From: a virus
Direction: 5' to 3' (one strand)
DNA: 12,053 nucleotides
UHGV virus genome: UHGV-0297898
The translations under genes and the position numbers were made by a program. Below the pieces are notes generated by a model that was not told the origin of the DNA, made no database searches, and saw only the letters and a list, made by a program, of their open reading frames with translations. Each line of letters begins with the position of its first letter. Positions within the stretch are counted from its first letter, which is position 1. This document shows, piece after piece, positions 5,422 to 11,924 of this stretch.

Positions 5422-6057
5422 TTAGAAGTTCAGATTTTTCAGTGCATTCAGTGCAGAGCCCACATCCTCAGCGTCGCGCAGGGACAGTGCGCCATAGCCC
5501 CCGGCCATGAATGTCGACCTCTGGGAAGTCAGTCTGGTGACGTTTCCGTCTAACGACGAGGCGCGGATCAGCGACGTCAAGAACGCGCTGGCCCGCGGGG
5601 AAATCCCCGAACAGAAAAAAATCGAAAGAGTCCTGCGTGATGTCGGACTCTCCCGTTCTTTCAGCAGAAAGGCTTCTTTCGTCTGGTCGTATTCCCAGTC
5701 CTTCAGGACGTACCCAATAGAAAGGCCGGTTAACGAACCGGCCTTCATGTGTGCATGTGCGCGTTTTGCCAGAGGATCATCATCAATGAGCAACCGCCCC
5801 CTGACGTAAAGCCCGACATCGTCTTCCTTCATTTCGGTGTAAACACCGATGGGCTCATCCATGCGGTGCTGCCAGAGCAGCGCAGGTAACGCTTTTCTGT
5901 CACTCCACGCCCGCAGGGAAGCAGCAAATGCCCCGGACATCACCACATCATCGTGGCTGTCCTTTACACCAAAGACGGAGCCATACCCTTCAAACTCACC
6001 GGAGTCACTGACAGATTTCAGACTCAGCGGTACATCAAGACGTTGTTTCGTCTGCAT
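5422..6057 (-). CDS. Prohead (head maturation) protease, HK97 family, with C-terminal region disrupted by a local inversion
   Basis: Catalytic-domain sequence …GEFEGYGSVFGVKDSHDDVVMSGAF…ALPALLWQHRMDEPIGVYTEMKEDDVGLYVRG…GLSIGYVLKDWEYDQTKEAFLLKE is typical of the family. Preferred start is ATG at 6057..6055 (AGAAGGA SD 8 nt upstream), not the track's ATG at 6093 which has no SD and overlaps the portal gene by 59 nt. After LLKE the minus-strand frame reads 48 residues of low-complexity sequence (RESPTSRRTLSIFFCSGISPRASAFLTSLIRASSLDGNVTRLTSQRST) before resuming a plausible C-terminus; the expected motif is on the opposite strand (see feature 5512..5656). Confidence 0.7.
   Translation of the reverse strand: MQTKQRLDVPLSLKSVSDSGEFEGYGSVFGVKDSHDDVVMSGAFAASLRAWSDRKALPALLWQHRMDEPIGVYTEMKEDDVGLYVRGRLLIDDDPLAKRAHAHMKAGSLTGLSIGYVLKDWEYDQTKEAFLLKERESPTSRRTLSIFFCSGISPRASAFLTSLIRASSLDGNVTRLTSQRSTFMAGGYGALSLRDAEDVGSALNALKNLNF
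5512..5656 (+). other. Inverted segment inside the protease gene: plus strand encodes the conserved protease C-terminal motif
   Basis: Plus-strand translation across this segment is (N)VDLWEVSLVTFPSNDEARISDVKNALARGEIPEQKKIERVLRDVGLSR, the canonical L.EVSLV..P.N.EA.I C-terminal strand of HK97-family prohead proteases, while all flanking protease sequence is on the minus strand. Re-inverting 5512..5656 (or 5513..5655) gives a continuous minus-strand ORF …AFLLK(D/E)VDLWEVSLVTFPSNDEARISDVK…GLSRFMAGGYGALSLRDAEDV…. Boundaries are approximate to within a few nt. Confidence 0.6.
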
Positions 6058-7276
6058 TGGCGTTATCCTTCTGCTTACCGGCTTTACTGCCATCGGAGGG
6101 TTTCGTGGTCATGTTCATCGGTGTGAGATAGACATCCCCACCGGGACGCGGATTCATATCTTCCAGGTCGCGGCAGTCATTGGGAGAGTAAATTCCCCAG
6201 TTAATCCCGGTGGCGTAGGCTTCAAAACGGGACTTCATATCCCCGCGCAGTAACGCCCCGGCGTTAAATTTGGCGTAATAAACGCCCTGCTTACTTTTTC
6301 GTACCAGTCCGGTGTTGATCCGCTGTTCGATGCGGGTCAGATACGGCACCAGTGAATAGTTGATAAATCCGAGCCCCAGTTCTTCGATATTGTTGAAGGT
6401 GGCGCGATCGGTGTTCTGCACCATGTGCAACGGTACCCGGAACAGACGACAGATTTCTTCAAGCTGAAACTTGCGGGTTTCCAGGAACTGGCTGTCCTCG
6501 GCGTTCAGCGCCATCGACTTCCAGTCCAGCCCCATCTCAAGGATCATCGGGCGGTGAGCATTGCCAAGCCCGGTGTGACGCTCCTCAAAATCTTTCTTCA
6601 GGCGCTCATAAGCCTGATCTGACAGCGTCTGCTCTGTACGCAACACACCCGACGTCACCGCACCATTGCTGAACAGTCTGGCCCCGTGCTCTTCAGTCGC
6701 TGCCGCCAGCGATATTGCCTCGCGGGCATAGGCGACGGGATTCAGCCCCACCAGTCCGTCCAGCGTCAGCGTGCGCACATGCCAGATATCCTCCTGGCTC
6801 AGCACATCCGTGGAGCCGTCCGGGAATGTGACCTGATAGACCGGCTCCCAGCTACTGTTAAGCTTCGGTACCACACAGCCGGGATCGACGGGCAGCAGTT
6901 CAGCCACTTCGCCAAATGCTTTCACTTTGTAGGCGTAAAAGTTTCCCCGCAGGCACAGACAGGTGACCACCAGCTCCCAGAACTCCTGCGGCGTCATATA
7001 GCCATTGGGATGCGTGGAGATCAGCTTATGCAGACGTTCGCCGGTGGCCCTCTGTTTCAGGCTGCCGTTCAGGTGATACAGATTGCAGGGCAACATCCCG
7101 ACCGACTCTGCCAGCACCCTGACGCAGGAAAAAACCGCCGTCAGTCGCATGGCCCGCTGGCTGCTGATCTGCTTTCCGGTATAGGTGTCATATGACAGCC
7201 CGATAGCATCCGCCAGCTCTGCTGGCGTGGTCACCGGCGCGTCACTTTTTCGTTGAAATAATCCCGAAAAGAACAC
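6035..7276 (-). CDS. Portal protein, HK97 family
   Basis: 413-aa ORF. Start is GTG at 7276..7274 with strong GGAGG SD 6 nt upstream; its G overlaps the TAG stop of the upstream small ORF (TAGTG). Length and content (…EEICRLFRVPLHMVQNTDRATF…) fit HK97-type portals; positioned between terminase and protease. Confidence 0.85.
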   Translation of the reverse strand: MFFSGLFQRKSDAPVTTPAELADAIGLSYDTYTGKQISSQRAMRLTAVFSCVRVLAESVGMLPCNLYHLNGSLKQRATGERLHKLISTHPNGYMTPQEFWELVVTCLCLRGNFYAYKVKAFGEVAELLPVDPGCVVPKLNSSWEPVYQVTFPDGSTDVLSQEDIWHVRTLTLDGLVGLNPVAYAREAISLAAATEEHGARLFSNGAVTSGVLRTEQTLSDQAYERLKKDFEERHTGLGNAHRPMILEMGLDWKSMALNAEDSQFLETRKFQLEEICRLFRVPLHMVQNTDRATFNNIEELGLGFINYSLVPYLTRIEQRINTGLVRKSKQGVYYAKFNAGALLRGDMKSRFEAYATGINWGIYSPNDCRDLEDMNPRPGGDVYLTPMNMTTKPSDGSKAGKQKDNANADETTS

Positions 7277-7458
7277 TATTTACCTCCGCCGACAGACGAC
7301 TGTGTACGGTCAAGATATCGCGCCACCAGCCACGACCAGAACAGGCACAACGCCCCGGCAACAACAAACCCCGCCGGGGGATAAATCAGCCAGGCACCAT
7401 ACGCCAGCAAAAGCGCCCCCAGCACGCCCACCAGAGGCGCGAGAATCAGCATGATCAT
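7276..7458 (-). CDS. Small predicted membrane protein (60 aa, two hydrophobic helices)
   Basis: ATG at 7458..7456 with GAGGT SD about 5 nt upstream, 11 nt after the terL stop. Sequence [60 protein letters not shown] is almost entirely hydrophobic. Exactly fills the gap between terL and portal with coupled stop/start. Confidence 0.45.
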
Positions 7459-7469
7459 AATTACCTCAG

Positions 7470-9203
7470 TTAAAGCGAGCGGATCCCATAGGACTCAATG
7501 TGGTCAGACAACGTGTCTTCTTTCTCGTACAGCATGGCTCTGCCAACCGCCATAATCAGCGCAACTGCACCATCGATTTTGTTTTCCGCCTGCTCTTTAA
7601 CGGGCTTCACCACATCATCGTTACCCGGAATGGTTTTGCCGACCACGTTGCCGATACACCAGGTCATGATGGGATTGCCATCATGATGAAAGCGCCCCGA
7701 TTCAATTGCCGCTTCCAGCTCTTTCATCGGGTCGGACATGTTGGTGTAGTTCTGAATGATAGTGATGGGGTTCAGGTCTTCATCAGCAAGGTCATGTGAC
7801 AACCCGGTCGCCCCGAAGGGGTCGATGGGTGACTCACTGACCGGGCTGATTTTGTTCGCCGCTTTGGCCTCCTCGAGGATGTAGCGATAATCCACCTCCG
7901 CACCATCGGTAACGGTCAGAACGCCCATTTCCACCCATTTCTGAAAGCGTTCGGCTGTCCGTCGATCTTCATTTTTCTCGACGCTGTACACCGTGTCATA
8001 CGGTACCCAGAAACGCGGGGCCACACTGTAGTAATGCGTTTTACCGTCAATCTCGCGGGTATAAAGTCGCGCCATGCTGTTCATATCCAGCTTACGCGCC
8101 AGGTCAAAGGCCAGAATGCACGGCTGCCCCTCGAACTGCTCAAGGGTCAGTGATTTATCCTCGCAGCTCTGCCAGCTCACCAGGTTGAAATACGCCGAAC
8201 GCGCCGACACCCAGATATTGAGGTGTTTTGTTTTAAAGACGTTTGCCAGACGGGCGTTATTTTTCGCACGCTGCTGCTGACTTAACAAAAATTCGCGATA
8301 AACCGACACGCCAATATTTGGATTGGCTTTTTCCAGCACCTGCGGGTCGGTCCAGTCGTCACCTTCATCAACGGTATAGATGATCCCGAACAGTTCATCG
8401 TTAGGCACCGAGCCGTTGAGCATCTCGATGACTTCCCGCCGTTTGTCGTAGCACGGCCCCTCAATGTTGTACCCGGCGGTAGTGATAGCCCACATCAGTG
8501 GCTGACGTCGCGCCCCCATCCCGGTAAGCATCGTGGTGTAAAGCGCATCTGTGGCGTGCTCGTGATATTCATCCACCACCGCACAGTGGGGTGATGAACC
8601 ATCACCGGGGTTACAGATCAGCGGTTCAAAACGCGCACCATCCTCCGGACGGTTCATGTTTGAGGCGTTAACCTCAATCCCGAACGCTTCCGTCAGCATG
8701 GGTGTGCGTTTACACATCAGTCTTGCCGGACGAAAGACTTCCCATGCCTGTTTCTCCGTCGTGGCACCGGAATACACTTCCGCGCCGAACTCGTTATCAC
8801 AGGCAAAACAATACAGGGCGACACCGGCAGAGATTGCCGATTTGCCGTTCTTACGGGGGATTTCGGTATACACCTCACGGAAGCGGCGCAGCCGGGAGCC
8901 TTTATTGACCCAGCCAAACGCGCAGCAGATCACAAAGAGCTGCCACGGCTCCAGCGTGATGGGCATCCTCTTAAATGCCCACTCACCCTTGGTGTGCGGC
9001 AACAGCTGAATAAATTTCGCGGCCCGTTCAGCCAGGTCCTTGTCGAAGCGGTAACGAAACGACTTACTTTTTTCCTCCATTAGGTCATCAAGATGGCGCT
9101 GGCAGGCCTGAATCACAAACTGGCAGGCCACAATCTTTCCGCGCACGACATCACGGGCATACTGATTGGCAGCATTTACGTTGGGGTAAGATTTCCGGCT
9201 CAT
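7470..9203 (-). CDS. Terminase large subunit
   Basis: 577-aa ORF, ATG at 9203..9201 overlapping the terS stop (ATGA). Contains Walker A-like PRKNGKS and Walker B-like CAVVDEYHE motifs in the N-terminal ATPase region; followed by the portal gene. Confidence 0.9.
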
Positions 9204-10170: not shown

Positions 10171-10195
10171 TGAAGAAAACTCTTTGTAATAAGCA

Positions 10196-10218
10196 TAAAA
10201 ACCCCATATTGAATGGGG
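10196..10218 (-). terminator. Rho-independent terminator-like hairpin downstream of the moron ORF
   Basis: On the minus strand: CCCCAT-tcaat-ATGGGG followed by TTTTTAT (plus-strand stem 10202-10207 / 10213-10218, A-tract 10196-10201). Sits about 10 nt after the stop of the 168-aa ORF and just upstream of the HNH start. Confidence 0.45.
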
Positions 10219-10227
10219 CTTGATGAA

Positions 10228-10734
10228 TTACTGTCCTAAAGCACTTTTTGCCAATATTGAAGCAATTGAAGCAAACGTCGGATTTTCCAATAGCTTTTGC
10301 CAAAGGCTTTTAACCTCTGGATCATTGCAATGCTCTATAGCATCATGTAGTTGTTGAATGGTTATATTCTTTGTGATCGAATTATCATTACCGGCTTGAA
10401 AATCACCACCAGCATTAATAGCACCGTTAAACGTCAAATGGGTCGTAATCTGCTTCGGCTTCTCTTTTACATCCAATGCCTTCACTATCAATACCGCCAA
10501 ATGTGAGTAGCCAGGGCAACCAACCTCGAGACTAATTTGCACCTCGTAATCAAGCACTTCAAATAGTCTTTCCCTGTCGACCATTTTTTGCACAATGATA
10601 TCGCCGATATTAAATGGGCATAAGTCACTTTCAATAGGAATATACAATCGGCCTTTAGATGAGTCACGTTGACCATAATAGGTGGATGAATTAAAGGTAA
10701 AAGTATCTGGATAGAAAAATTGATCTGGTCTCAT
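10228..10734 (-). CDS. Hypothetical protein (168 aa) encoded in an AT-rich moron island; function unknown
   Basis: ATG at 10734..10732 with weak AAGGGA SD. Protein MRPDQFFYPDTFTFNSSTYYGQRDSSKGRLYIPIESDLCPFNIGDIIVQKMVDRERLFEVLDYEVQ… has no signal peptide or TM segment and no motif I can assign. The gene and its flanks are visibly AT-rich compared with surrounding phage genes, and it has its own promoter-like and terminator elements. Confidence 0.6.
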   Translation of the reverse strand: MRPDQFFYPDTFTFNSSTYYGQRDSSKGRLYIPIESDLCPFNIGDIIVQKMVDRERLFEVLDYEVQISLEVGCPGYSHLAVLIVKALDVKEKPKQITTHLTFNGAINAGGDFQAGNDNSITKNITIQQLHDAIEHCNDPEVKSLWQKLLENPTFASIASILAKSALGQ

Positions 10735-10819
10735 AATAGTCCCTTTTGTGTTTTGTGGATATCTCCATTAATTAGACTATTACTTTATCTCTTTTCCCAA
10801 ATACATACATTCAAAATTA

Positions 10820-10860
10820 AGAGCATTATCACAGATAATTTCGAAGCGATATTGCAATGC
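10820..10860 (-). promoter_or_regulatory. Candidate sigma70 extended -10 promoter for the moron ORF
   Basis: Minus strand reads TGTGATAAT (plus 10825-10833), an extended -10 element, about 90 nt upstream of the moron ATG in a 200-bp AT-rich spacer. A TTGCAA at 10852-10857 is too far (21 nt) to be a canonical -35, so this would act as an extended -10 promoter. Pattern-based only. Confidence 0.3.
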
Positions 10861-10938
10861 CTACCCATGACCTGTATTCAACGAATACGTATCAGAGGAA
10901 TACCTTGTTCGTTATCTACATGACGATAAAAATATACA

Positions 10939-11187
10939 TCAATTTTGATTATCAATGATTCTGATATCTGACTTATCCCTATTACATTGAGCCAACGCGG
11001 ATAACAAACTTACATTCAAATCAAGACTTGCACCATACGTCAGTGGGTTGGGTATAAACGGTACAGGTGTATCAGAAGTCAAGCTGACTGGTAGTGGAGT
11101 CTTCGGAATGCTCACGTAAACTGTTCGCGTACTTCCACAACCGGTCAGCAGCGGCAGCAGGCACAGGGCGTACAGCACAATCATCAT
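10939..11187 (-). CDS. Rz1-like outer-membrane lipoprotein (o-spanin)
   Basis: Internal ATG-ATG at 11187..11182 within the track's longer ORF gives MMIVLYALCLLPLLTGC…, a lipoprotein signal with lipobox LTGC. Mature part is proline-rich (PKTPLPVSLTSDTPVPFIPNPL), typical of Rz1. Starts inside the Rz gene in the +1 frame and runs 133 nt past the Rz stop (overlapped rather than embedded). Confidence 0.6.
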   Translation of the reverse strand: MMIVLYALCLLPLLTGCGSTRTVYVSIPKTPLPVSLTSDTPVPFIPNPLTYGASLDLNVSLLSALAQCNRDKSDIRIIDNQN

Positions 11188-11464
11188 CCGCAACAGCCAC
11201 TTTGATATCAGCCTGGGTTCTCTGTGACTCCAGTGCGATCTGCTGTTTTGCATGCTGGTTAGCCTCCAGAACTGTATTGACGATTTGCAGTGATTGCAGG
11301 ACGTTATTGGTAATAGCGGTTGCCGATTCGGCATTTTGTACAGCCTCATCAGCACGTTTCTTTTCGCGCTGGTATTTGCTGTGGTAGTGGTTAGCTGACC
11401 AGACGAGAGAACCGAATAAAGTCAGGAGGAAAGCAGAAATAACCAGCTTATAGCGAAGTTTCAT
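11072..11464 (-). CDS. Rz-like inner-membrane spanin (i-spanin)
   Basis: Preferred start is ATG at 11464..11462 (MKLRYKLVISAFLLTLFGSLVW…), giving 130 aa; the track's start at 11497 is a TTG. One N-terminal TM helix followed by a charged, coiled-coil-like periplasmic domain; located directly after the endolysin gene. Confidence 0.7.
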   Translation of the reverse strand: MKLRYKLVISAFLLTLFGSLVWSANHYHSKYQREKKRADEAVQNAESATAITNNVLQSLQIVNTVLEANQHAKQQIALESQRTQADIKVAVADDDCAVRPVPAAAADRLWKYANSLREHSEDSTTSQLDF

Positions 11465-11924
11465 TAACCACCCCGCCAGCTTCTTTGAATTTGGCAATCA
11501 GACTATCGATCTTGTGTTCATACTGACCGTAGCCAGCACCGGGCAATGAAGCCCAAATATTGCTGCAACGGTCGATTGCCTGACGAATATTGCCACGGTC
11601 AATCATCGGTAAAGCGCCACGCTCTTTAATCTGCTGCAGAGCTACAGCGTCCTGGCTTTCTGGAGAAAAATCTTTCAGGCCAAGCTGTTTACGGTAAGCA
11701 TCCCACCAGCGTGAAAGAAGCTGGTAACGTCCGGCGGCTGTTGACTTGAGTTTCGGGTTTAGCGTGACAAGTTTGCGAGGGTGATCGGAGTAATCAGTGA
11801 AGAGTTCACCACCGACAATAACGTCATAACCGTGGTTACGTGTCGGTTGTCGTCCGTTATCCGTTCCTTCTGACCAAGCCACCATATCAAGGAAAGCTTT
11901 ACGCTGGGAATTTAGTACCTGCAT
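11448..11924 (-). CDS. R: Endolysin, lambda R-type lytic transglycosylase
   Basis: 158-aa ORF, ATG at 11924..11922. Near-identical over most of its length to phage lambda R as I recall it (…QRKAFLDM.AWSEGTDNGRQ.TRNHGYDVIVGGELFTDYSDHPRKLVTLNPKLKST.AGRYQLLSRWWDAYRKQLGLKDFSP…), differing mainly at the extreme N- and C-termini. Confidence 0.9.
   Translation of the reverse strand: MQVLNSQRKAFLDMVAWSEGTDNGRQPTRNHGYDVIVGGELFTDYSDHPRKLVTLNPKLKSTAAGRYQLLSRWWDAYRKQLGLKDFSPESQDAVALQQIKERGALPMIDRGNIRQAIDRCSNIWASLPGAGYGQYEHKIDSLIAKFKEAGGVVNETSL

Follow-up and report, generated by a model that had tools for sequence, protein, structure and literature searches.

What does a small, strongly hydrophobic protein do between the large terminase and portal genes of a phage head-assembly operon? 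The question is raised by UHGV virus genome UHGV-0297898, of which we analyzed a stretch of 12,053 nucleotides (hereafter, the window). Here, the genes for lysozyme and Rz/Rz1, an HNH endonuclease, the small terminase, the large terminase (terL), the portal, the prohead protease, and the major capsid protein follow one another on the minus strand. A first-pass annotation, made from the sequence alone, had singled out a 60-codon open reading frame (ORF) with two transmembrane (TM) segments that fills the gap between terL and the portal gene. We confirmed this ORF, placed it on the minus strand (which that annotation had left unstated), and found that AlphaFold2 also models its product as two helices. 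The ORF is already known: it is the named gene ymfR, a member of the phage protein family phrog_502. Our tentative proposal, which we favor without yet calling it probable, is that YmfR may act at the inner membrane, without being part of the virion, and link portal synthesis or the initiation of procapsids to that membrane.

The protein encoded in the window is identical to RefSeq WP_000605606.1 ("protein YmfR"), and the matching records are 100% identical over window positions 7230-7500. A megablast search with this same interval found ymfR in 1372 of 5426 complete Escherichia coli genomes, or about one quarter, where the gene is annotated "ymfR: protein YmfR" and its flanks "terminase large subunit" and "phage portal protein." The accession is common to a prophage that is 100% identical here (L042, from E. 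coli J31) and to a K-12-type e14 remnant (L041) that carries ymfJ, ymfK, ymfT, ymfL, a truncated terminase gene, ymfR, a truncated portal gene, ymfQ, ycfK, tfaP, and tfaE. Published descriptions of e14 give the order aaaE (a terminase remnant), ymfR, beeE (a portal remnant) (PMC12956098, PMC11541549). The YmfR of this E. coli K-12 cryptic prophage therefore has the same sequence and the same terminase-portal position as ours, but whereas e14 is decayed, the gene in the window sits beside full-length terL and portal genes.

Membership in phrog_502, whose annotation is "membrane protein," is supported by a match with an E value of 2.5e-28 that aligns residues 1-55 with positions 3-57 of the 58-position profile, and 39 of 39 diverse family members match the same profile. 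The ORF thus combines a full-length profile match, identity to a named protein, a two-helix hairpin with an intervening turn, and a position between terL and portal. Phage relatives 92-100% identical to YmfR occur in vB_EcoM-689R6, SfII (SfII_03), SfI, SfIV, ST64B (Sb3), 118970_sal3, and phiP27 (L37), under the labels "putative integral membrane protein," "membrane protein," or "hypothetical protein." More broadly, SfII_03, ST64B Sb3, phiP27 L37, phi644-2 gp3, Klein gp11, and Omega gp12 all belong to the YmfR family and lie directly upstream of a portal gene; such homologues have been annotated by hydrophobicity alone, and in some records (SfIV, SfV) the gene is left without annotation. Pfam and NCBIfam hold no model for YmfR (we saw only sub-threshold noise), and Pfam has none for the 39 relatives either. 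A profile search of 177,635 distinct Protein Data Bank (PDB) chain sequences gave no match to YmfR, and a Foldseek search of the PDB with its AlphaFold2 model returned only a non-significant V-ATPase subunit hairpin (E = 8.6). The literature that we searched contained no functional study of YmfR and no mention of phrog_502; on small membrane proteins between terminase and portal it offered general remarks alone, which call inserts at this place unusual.

Of all properties of the family, the position next to the portal gene is the best conserved, and it is kept well outside E. coli. Our enterobacterial set comprised 19 loci, 17 from genomes (Escherichia, Shigella, Edwardsiella, Mangrovibacter, Klebsiella, Scandinavium, Serratia, and Citrobacter) and 2 from phages; terL lies upstream and portal downstream in all 19, so that conservation at the same position in related prophages, a check proposed with the first-pass annotation, was borne out. 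Five distant metagenomic members, only 27-43% identical, are likewise all immediately upstream of a portal gene of the PF04860 type; three of them follow a TerL gene (PF03354/PF20441), the other two follow a gene with no recorded Pfam assignment, and one of the five loci has an S49 protease instead of S78. The turn motif WL[VIA]YxPAG[FY] alone retrieves at least 578 IMG/VR contigs. Among 80 of these that we fetched, portal is directly downstream in 78 of the 79 loci with enough sequence and terL is upstream in 71 of 76.

To see which phages carry the small ORF, we took a spread sample of phages with a PF04860-type portal, a type that occurs in 2059 phage records. It is present in Burkholderia phi644-2 (under the label "membrane protein"), Vibrio K322, Escherichia phage Evi, Ralstonia YO168_1, mycobacteriophages Klein and Omega, and SfV, and it is absent, with no room for it or no such ORF, from mEp234 (HK97-like), Pseudomonas vB_Pae_U2, Xanthomonas phiL7, Bacillus Negev_SA, and gut phage NatCom_11578. 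In a PHROG scan, Klein gp11 (annotated "membrane protein") and Omega gp12 fell in phrog_502 with E values of about 2e-17, extending the family across phages of Proteobacteria and Actinobacteria. Two sister families adjoin it. One, phrog_7105, takes in the ORFs of the SfV, Evi, and Ralstonia type and cross-matches phrog_502. The other, phrog_1142, is found in Clostridium phage phiSM101 and is also matched by Omega gp12 (E = 4.8e-5), a cross-match that links phrog_1142 to the YmfR superfamily. The first-pass view that packaging modules run straight from terL to portal is therefore wrong for the ymfR clade, and phage lambda has gene W at this place. Nor is the ORF unexpected or unusual, as had been thought: it is a named gene from a large phage family that keeps the same position in phages of several bacterial phyla.

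Several observations on this junction in other phages are recorded here. In phiSM101 (L035), the phrog_1142 member is an unannotated 59-codon two-TM ORF at 2214-2393, in a terL-portal gap of 190 nt. SfV (L002, U82619.2) has an unannotated 53-codon two-TM ORF at 2289-2450, MKSLIADVIGLAGFGLLTCGVYLQFGMAPALILSGALLLVGALAMARRGTRAA, that starts on the terL stop codon (ATGA); the annotated SfV portal start, GTG at 2392, overlaps this ORF out of frame and has probably been placed about 50-60 nt too far upstream. In Moraxella phage Mcat6 (L031, 2213-2401) and Stx2a_WGPS2 (L038, 2114-2335), the slot before portal is held by an unrelated soluble ORF of 62-73 amino acids that belongs to phrog_829. Where a YmfR-like ORF precedes portal, the portal protein nearly always starts with a short aromatic and basic motif, of the kind MFFxxLFxK/R (MFFSGLFQRK, MFFSRQLL, MFLSKLL, MSLFTRIF, MGLFSRLR, and the like), that resembles an amphipathic membrane-targeting sequence. 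This comparison used a small sample, namely window positions 7247-7276 and the portal starts of loci L012, L015, L021-L029, L040, and L043. The motif is also found in NatCom_11578 and Mcat6, which have no YmfR-like ORF, and it is absent from mEp234, vB_Pae_U2, and phiL7.

Mosaic phages allow the two neighbors of the small ORF to be told apart. In Klebsiella and Serratia, the locus carries a different type of terL (35-37% identity) but retains the portal (72-82%) and the small ORF (52-66%). The small ORF diverges faster than the portal, at 52-66% against 72-83% identity within the same loci. SfV presents the opposite exchange: its terL is 97% identical, its portal only 27%, and its small ORF is of the phrog_7105 type (29% in alignment), with the break about 80 nt before the end of terL. 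Across 84 loci, the rank partial correlation between small-ORF and portal identities given terL was 0.30, and that between small-ORF and terL identities given portal was 0.02; the pairs are not independent, and we attach no probability to these values. Together, these comparisons show that the small ORF travels with portal, not with terL. We also observed that the last ~27 residues of TerL (window ~7470-7551) are wholly different from those of SfV, the rest being 97% identical. The block swapped in SfV therefore consists of the terL C-terminal tail, the small ORF, and portal, an arrangement that would fit contact between the terminase C terminus and the portal, an idea that comes from lambda gpA.

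The signals for translation at this junction are also conserved. The ORF runs from an ATG at 7458-7456 to a TAG at 7278-7276 on the minus strand and fills the gap; upstream, the terL stop codon TAA (7472-7470) is followed by CTGAGGTAATT and then by the ymfR ATG, leaving 11 nt between the two genes. The first-pass description of a good Shine-Dalgarno sequence (GAGG, 5 nt upstream) and of a stop codon that shares its G with the portal GTG start (TAGTG) proved accurate. GAGG is kept at the equivalent position upstream of the family ORF in other genera, the 1-base stop/start overlap recurs as TAATG or TGATG in the Mangrovibacter, Klebsiella, Serratia, Citrobacter, and Scandinavium loci, and an equivalent of the portal Shine-Dalgarno sequence (GGAGG, GGGGG, or GGNGG) is found in all homologous loci compared. 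This arrangement indicates that ymfR and portal are translationally coupled. It also accounts for the invariant G58-G59 at the C terminus of YmfR, since these codons encode the portal Shine-Dalgarno sequence.

Such an arrangement could mean that the frame is mainly a coupling device: by re-initiating at the portal start, ribosomes that have finished the small ORF would fix how much portal is made relative to terL, with the peptide itself secondary. The stop/start overlap and the ORF-internal portal Shine-Dalgarno sequence are kept in every lineage examined, the C-terminal Gly-Gly is dictated by that site, and the tail evolves neutrally, all of which counts in favor of this explanation. However, a pure spacer is not expected to preserve two hydrophobic helices with invariant Gly, Trp, and Pro residues from enterobacteria to mycobacteriophages, nor would it give a core in which nonsynonymous change is well below synonymous change, and phages without the small ORF, such as mEp234, couple terL directly to portal. 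We therefore consider it improbable that coupling is the main function of the frame.

A terminator-like hairpin (12 pairs followed by TTTTG, a weak T tail) lies inside the ymfR ORF at window 7413-7440 on the minus strand, and the SfII_03 record annotates a hairpin of this type as a putative rho-independent terminator. We rejected it as a terminator: neither phiP27 nor other genera keep the fold, and for this reason the hairpin is probably incidental.

Is the peptide itself under selection? The ORF is intact, at 59-64 codons, in 18 of the 19 enterobacterial loci. In comparisons with other genera, the two-helix core has a proportion of nonsynonymous differences (pN) of 0.16-0.24 against a proportion of synonymous differences (pS) of 0.45-0.73, which indicates that the helical core is under purifying selection. 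Thirty enterobacterial members share invariant P8, G11, G14, L18, G21, W23, Y26, P27, G30, G35, C38, L39, W41, and S42, in addition to the C-terminal glycine pair. A HMMER profile searched against 1.84 billion representatives matched 376 clusters at E <= 0.001, nearly all of them 45-100 residues long and with both helices covered, so these matches are not a mere artefact of hydrophobic composition. The intact ORF in 18 of 19 loci, a core with pN below pS, and the full-length phrog_502 match all speak for more than chance. The first-pass opinion that the ORF is very likely translated was upheld. A chance open frame in a GC-rich spacer might be suspected, given that the ORF is short, matches nothing in Pfam or NCBIfam, and faces an antisense ORF of 50 codons (7302-7454, plus strand). 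The 376 representative clusters of consistent length, the predominance of synonymous changes in the divergence, and the conservation of length, start signals, and stop overlap make this so unlikely as to be negligible. Collectively, these patterns of conservation indicate that ymfR is a real coding gene under sequence selection.

The selected core corresponds to a predicted membrane hairpin. YmfR has a grand average of hydropathy of 1.22, with hydrophobic stretches at residues ~1-25 and 28-48 separated by a YPPAG turn, and AlphaFold2, run with a 44-sequence alignment, predicted helices at residues 2-25 and 27-56 (mean pLDDT, 79.5). Averaged over the 44 members, Lys and Arg residues number 2.8 in the tail, 0.6 at the N terminus, and 0.1 in the inter-helix turn. 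From this charge distribution and the positive-inside rule, both ends would be cytoplasmic and only about five residues periplasmic. A topology prediction had been proposed as a check on the first-pass annotation, and it came out in its favor, with two helices predicted both by hydrophobicity and by AlphaFold2. YmfR is thus modeled as a 60-residue inner-membrane helical hairpin with an N-in/C-in topology, and the conserved small residues on both helices suggest tight packing and possibly oligomerization.

A small two-helix membrane protein of this kind invites comparison with holins. Class II holins and pinholins (S21) are small proteins with two TM helices, an N-in/C-in topology, and a basic C-terminal tail, and YmfR is like them in size, in its two predicted TM helices, in its predicted topology, and in its basic tail; the charged cytoplasmic C terminus, like the helices, is a matter of prediction only. 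Unlike pinholins, however, YmfR is encoded away from the lysis genes, shows no match to a holin family, and lacks a conserved dual start, and lethality was not seen in a screen with an ASKA clone. More specifically, no holin family in Pfam matched YmfR or the 39 relatives above threshold. A holin-like dual start at M1-I-M3 was considered and rejected, because homologues do not keep the second Met and the residue that separates the pair is uncharged. Lysozyme and Rz/Rz1 are encoded at window 10939-11924, some 4 kb from ymfR, so that ymfR is not part of the lysis cassette, and in the near-identical prophage L042 that cassette has a lambda-family holin before a GH24 lysozyme, together with Rz- and Rz1-like genes. 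The same separation is seen in Cluster J mycobacteriophages, which have a lysis cassette with its own two-TM holin far from portal, while gp12 stays beside portal (PMC3706429).

The holin or antiholin role suggested in the first-pass annotation is therefore without support, there being no holin family match and a lysis cassette elsewhere, and the same is true of its two other suggestions, a superinfection-exclusion factor and a small toxin. We found no promoter-like site upstream of ymfR and no conserved terminator. Its GC content is 0.60 compared to 0.54 and 0.56 for its neighbors (0.69 compared to 0.65 and 0.68 at third codon positions), and a PADLOC search with four family members gave no defence match; ymfR thus has none of the marks of a moron, namely a promoter or terminator of its own, a distinct composition, or a match to a defence protein. 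In K-12, ymfR RNA rises together with other e14 genes under SOS-inducing conditions, with a log2 fold change of 4.52 (PMC10012262). This concerted rise fits read-through from an induced prophage, not constitutive expression in the lysogen. As to toxicity, an ASKA ymfR clone induced with 0.1 mM IPTG was among those recovered growing in a screen (PMC10299036), which is weak evidence against a toxic product.

The main rival to our proposal is nonetheless of this general kind: YmfR could be a late membrane-active accessory unrelated to portal, located at an insert-tolerant junction and inherited with the head module. It might, for example, modulate lysis timing as a holin or antiholin, block re-injection by sibling phages, or dissipate the membrane potential. 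The conserved part of the protein is the hairpin, with G11, G14, G21, G30, and G35 typical of helix packing or oligomerization; its size and predicted N-in/C-in topology resemble those of class II holins and pinholins; PHROG places phrog_502 in the category "moron, auxiliary metabolic gene and host takeover"; and the gene is dispensable in some lineages. The junction, moreover, hosts at least three unrelated families of small genes, since YmfR-like ORFs, phrog_829, and lambda W are all found there, and SPP1 has ORFs 3-5 at this place (PMC6316719). Against such an accessory role stand the lack of a holin family match, the complete lysis cassette elsewhere in the phage, and a position that stays constant even where the lysis genes move. 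The gene also has no promoter of its own, no distinct GC content, and no PADLOC match, the protein lacks a periplasmic domain that could block a receptor, and the induced ASKA clone was viable. On balance, we regard an accessory role as possible but somewhat unlikely.

Gene position had led to another label as well. Lambda gpW, a protein of 68 amino acids whose gene lies between A and B, shares with YmfR its gene position, a similar length, and an overlapping start/stop, and YmfR homologues are labeled "head-tail joining protein W" in ON470584.1, ON470603.1, ON470580.1, and PQ793804.1. Lambda gpW is, however, a soluble, charged head-tail joining protein, whereas YmfR is a predicted membrane hairpin. 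We tested homology between them and rejected it, as BLASTP gave no alignment even at E <= 100. Given this lack of sequence similarity, the W label is a positional mis-annotation.

We return, then, to the tentative proposal that YmfR links the portal to the membrane. We infer membrane insertion, portal contact, and a role in assembly from gene order, coupling, and co-inheritance. The proposal is supported by near-obligate synteny with portal, conserved coupling, co-inheritance, and purifying selection on the core. Late, induction-linked expression counts in its favor as well, given the lack of an own promoter, the neighbor-like GC content, and the SOS-associated rise with e14, as does independence from lysis, given that the position of the ymfR family does not follow the lysis cassette. 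That gp12 is missing from the virion proteins identified for Omega would likewise fit a non-virion factor. In the mechanism that we envisage, YmfR would be made late, from the head-assembly operon, with its translation coupled one-to-one to that of portal. By inserting co-translationally, YmfR would draw the polycistronic mRNA, along with the ribosome that re-initiates on it, to the inner membrane, where YmfR, its Gly-zipper oligomer, or both might then offer a membrane site for formation of the portal ring. Procapsid assembly would thereby be nucleated once, at the membrane, and YmfR would be a functional analogue of T4 gp40 and of PRD1 P20/P22.

Membrane-associated head assembly of this type has precedents. 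In T4, gp40 and YidC take part when the gp20 portal initiator is assembled at the inner membrane; gp40 is a phage-encoded helper that is needed for the membrane portal initiator and is not listed among the components of the mature head (PMC9958956). The likeness to YmfR would be one of proposed role only, and we do not claim that the two belong to one family. T4 gene 40 is not known to lie next to the T4 portal gene. In SPP1, cryo-electron tomography revealed open procapsid precursors at the membrane, in a portal-dependent manner, by a molecular mechanism that the authors describe as "presently unknown" (PMC13212656). In PRD1, the packaging machinery is recruited to the unique vertex by the small membrane proteins P20 and P22 (PMC5850374), again comparable by proposed role. 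P20/P22 are virion components, unlike the non-virion YmfR that we propose, and PRD1 has an internal membrane and comes from another lineage of viruses.

Alternatively, YmfR could travel in the capsid or portal channel, as a minor virion or ejection protein, and insert into the inner membrane of the recipient for DNA entry. It is encoded among structural genes, beside portal, and is hydrophobic enough to insert into a membrane. However, a protein that is nearly all TM would need to be extracted from the membrane of the producer cell, and the profile search of PDB chains, and hence of the solved phage particles among them, found no match. Mass spectrometry of Omega virions, moreover, identified 17 proteins that included the portal gp13 but not gp12, a weak argument. 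Taken together, these points make a virion role very improbable.

Some findings weigh against the proposal that YmfR acts with the portal at the membrane. Several phages with the same portal type lack the gene, so YmfR is not generally required. The C-terminal tail is nearly neutral (pN ~ pS), and since it is the sole cytoplasmic part of the protein, there is no obvious conserved portal-binding surface. Tight linkage alone could explain both the synteny and the co-inheritance. The absence of gp12 from the Omega virion list is weak evidence, small hydrophobic proteins being easily missed by mass spectrometry. Finally, one copy is disrupted: in L014 (4001-4216), a second copy in Shigella flexneri SFBU0723 and the sole such case in our set, the loss of one C from a CCCCC run at codons 27-28 creates a 71-codon frame across the portal start, which may reflect either a sequencing error or a decaying Shigella prophage.

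The coordinates of the junction and of the predicted parts of YmfR are collected in Table 1.

Table 1. Features of the terL-ymfR-portal junction in UHGV-0297898, in window coordinates
Feature	Positions	Strand	Basis and remarks
ymfR-family ORF	7276..7458	minus	60 codons plus TAG stop; translation, phrog_502 match, RefSeq annotation
terL gene, usual upstream neighbor	7470..9203	minus	Pfam TerL_ATPase and TerL_nuclease
Portal gene (PF04860), constant downstream partner	6035..7276	minus	Pfam, E = 1.1e-107
ymfR Shine-Dalgarno sequence, GAGG	7464..7467	minus	5 nt 5' of ATG; read from sequence
Portal Shine-Dalgarno sequence, GGAGG	7283..7287	minus	Within last ymfR codons; read from sequence
TAGTG, ymfR stop/portal GTG start	7274..7278	minus	1-base overlap (shared G); portal GTG at 7276-7274
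Predicted TM helix 1, residues ~1-25	7384..7458	minus	Kyte-Doolittle windows up to 2.67; AlphaFold2; conserved P8, G11, G14, G21
Predicted periplasmic turn, Y26-P-P-A-G30	7369..7383	minus	Alignments; family signature WL(I/V)YxPAG(F/Y); almost uncharged
Predicted TM helix 2, residues ~28-48	7315..7377	minus	Hydrophobicity, AlphaFold2; conserved G35, C38, W41-S42-W43
Predicted basic cytoplasmic C-terminal tail, residues 47-60	7279..7320	minus	Variable except terminal Gly-Gly

Two further features of the window lie outside this junction. Within the prohead protease gene, a 143-bp segment (5514-5656) is inverted relative to close relatives; it is 100% identical to the J31 prophage L042 and 98.6% identical to SfII, in the opposite orientation. 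The Pfam S78 match of the protease ORF (6093..5422, minus strand) ends after profile position 124 of 165, and the conserved protease stretch LWEVSLVTFPSNDEARI reads on the plus strand, in ORF 5507..5809. We found no flanking inverted repeats around the inverted segment, which represents either a disrupted protease, and hence a defective prophage, or an assembly artefact. The second feature, window 10185-10972 between Rz/Rz1 and the HNH endonuclease gene, is not shared by L042, although the two are 99% identical elsewhere; at this place L042 has another hypothetical gene, in the opposite orientation. In the window, the stretch holds a hypothetical ORF of 168 codons (10734..10228, minus strand), and it is a variable, moron-like slot.

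As an object, ymfR is ordinary, a named and widely annotated prophage gene. Even if it is not related to assembly, it would still be a late membrane protein that is conserved in many temperate phages infecting pathogens, among them the Shigella Sf phages, Salmonella ST64B, the Stx phage P27, and Burkholderia pseudomallei phages. How the portal or nascent procapsid attaches to the cytoplasmic membrane is an open question (PMC13212656), for which a co-translated small membrane protein is a candidate. In its widest form, which we consider rather unlikely, our proposal would make the YmfR-family hairpins (phrog_502, phrog_7105, and phrog_1142) a membrane receptor that tethers portal, or its translating ribosome, and so nucleates one procapsid, initiated by the portal, in a large share of the HK97-type phages, whether their hosts are Gram-negative or Gram-positive. 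If true, this would make the membrane-associated state of assembly observed in T4 and SPP1 accessible at the molecular level.

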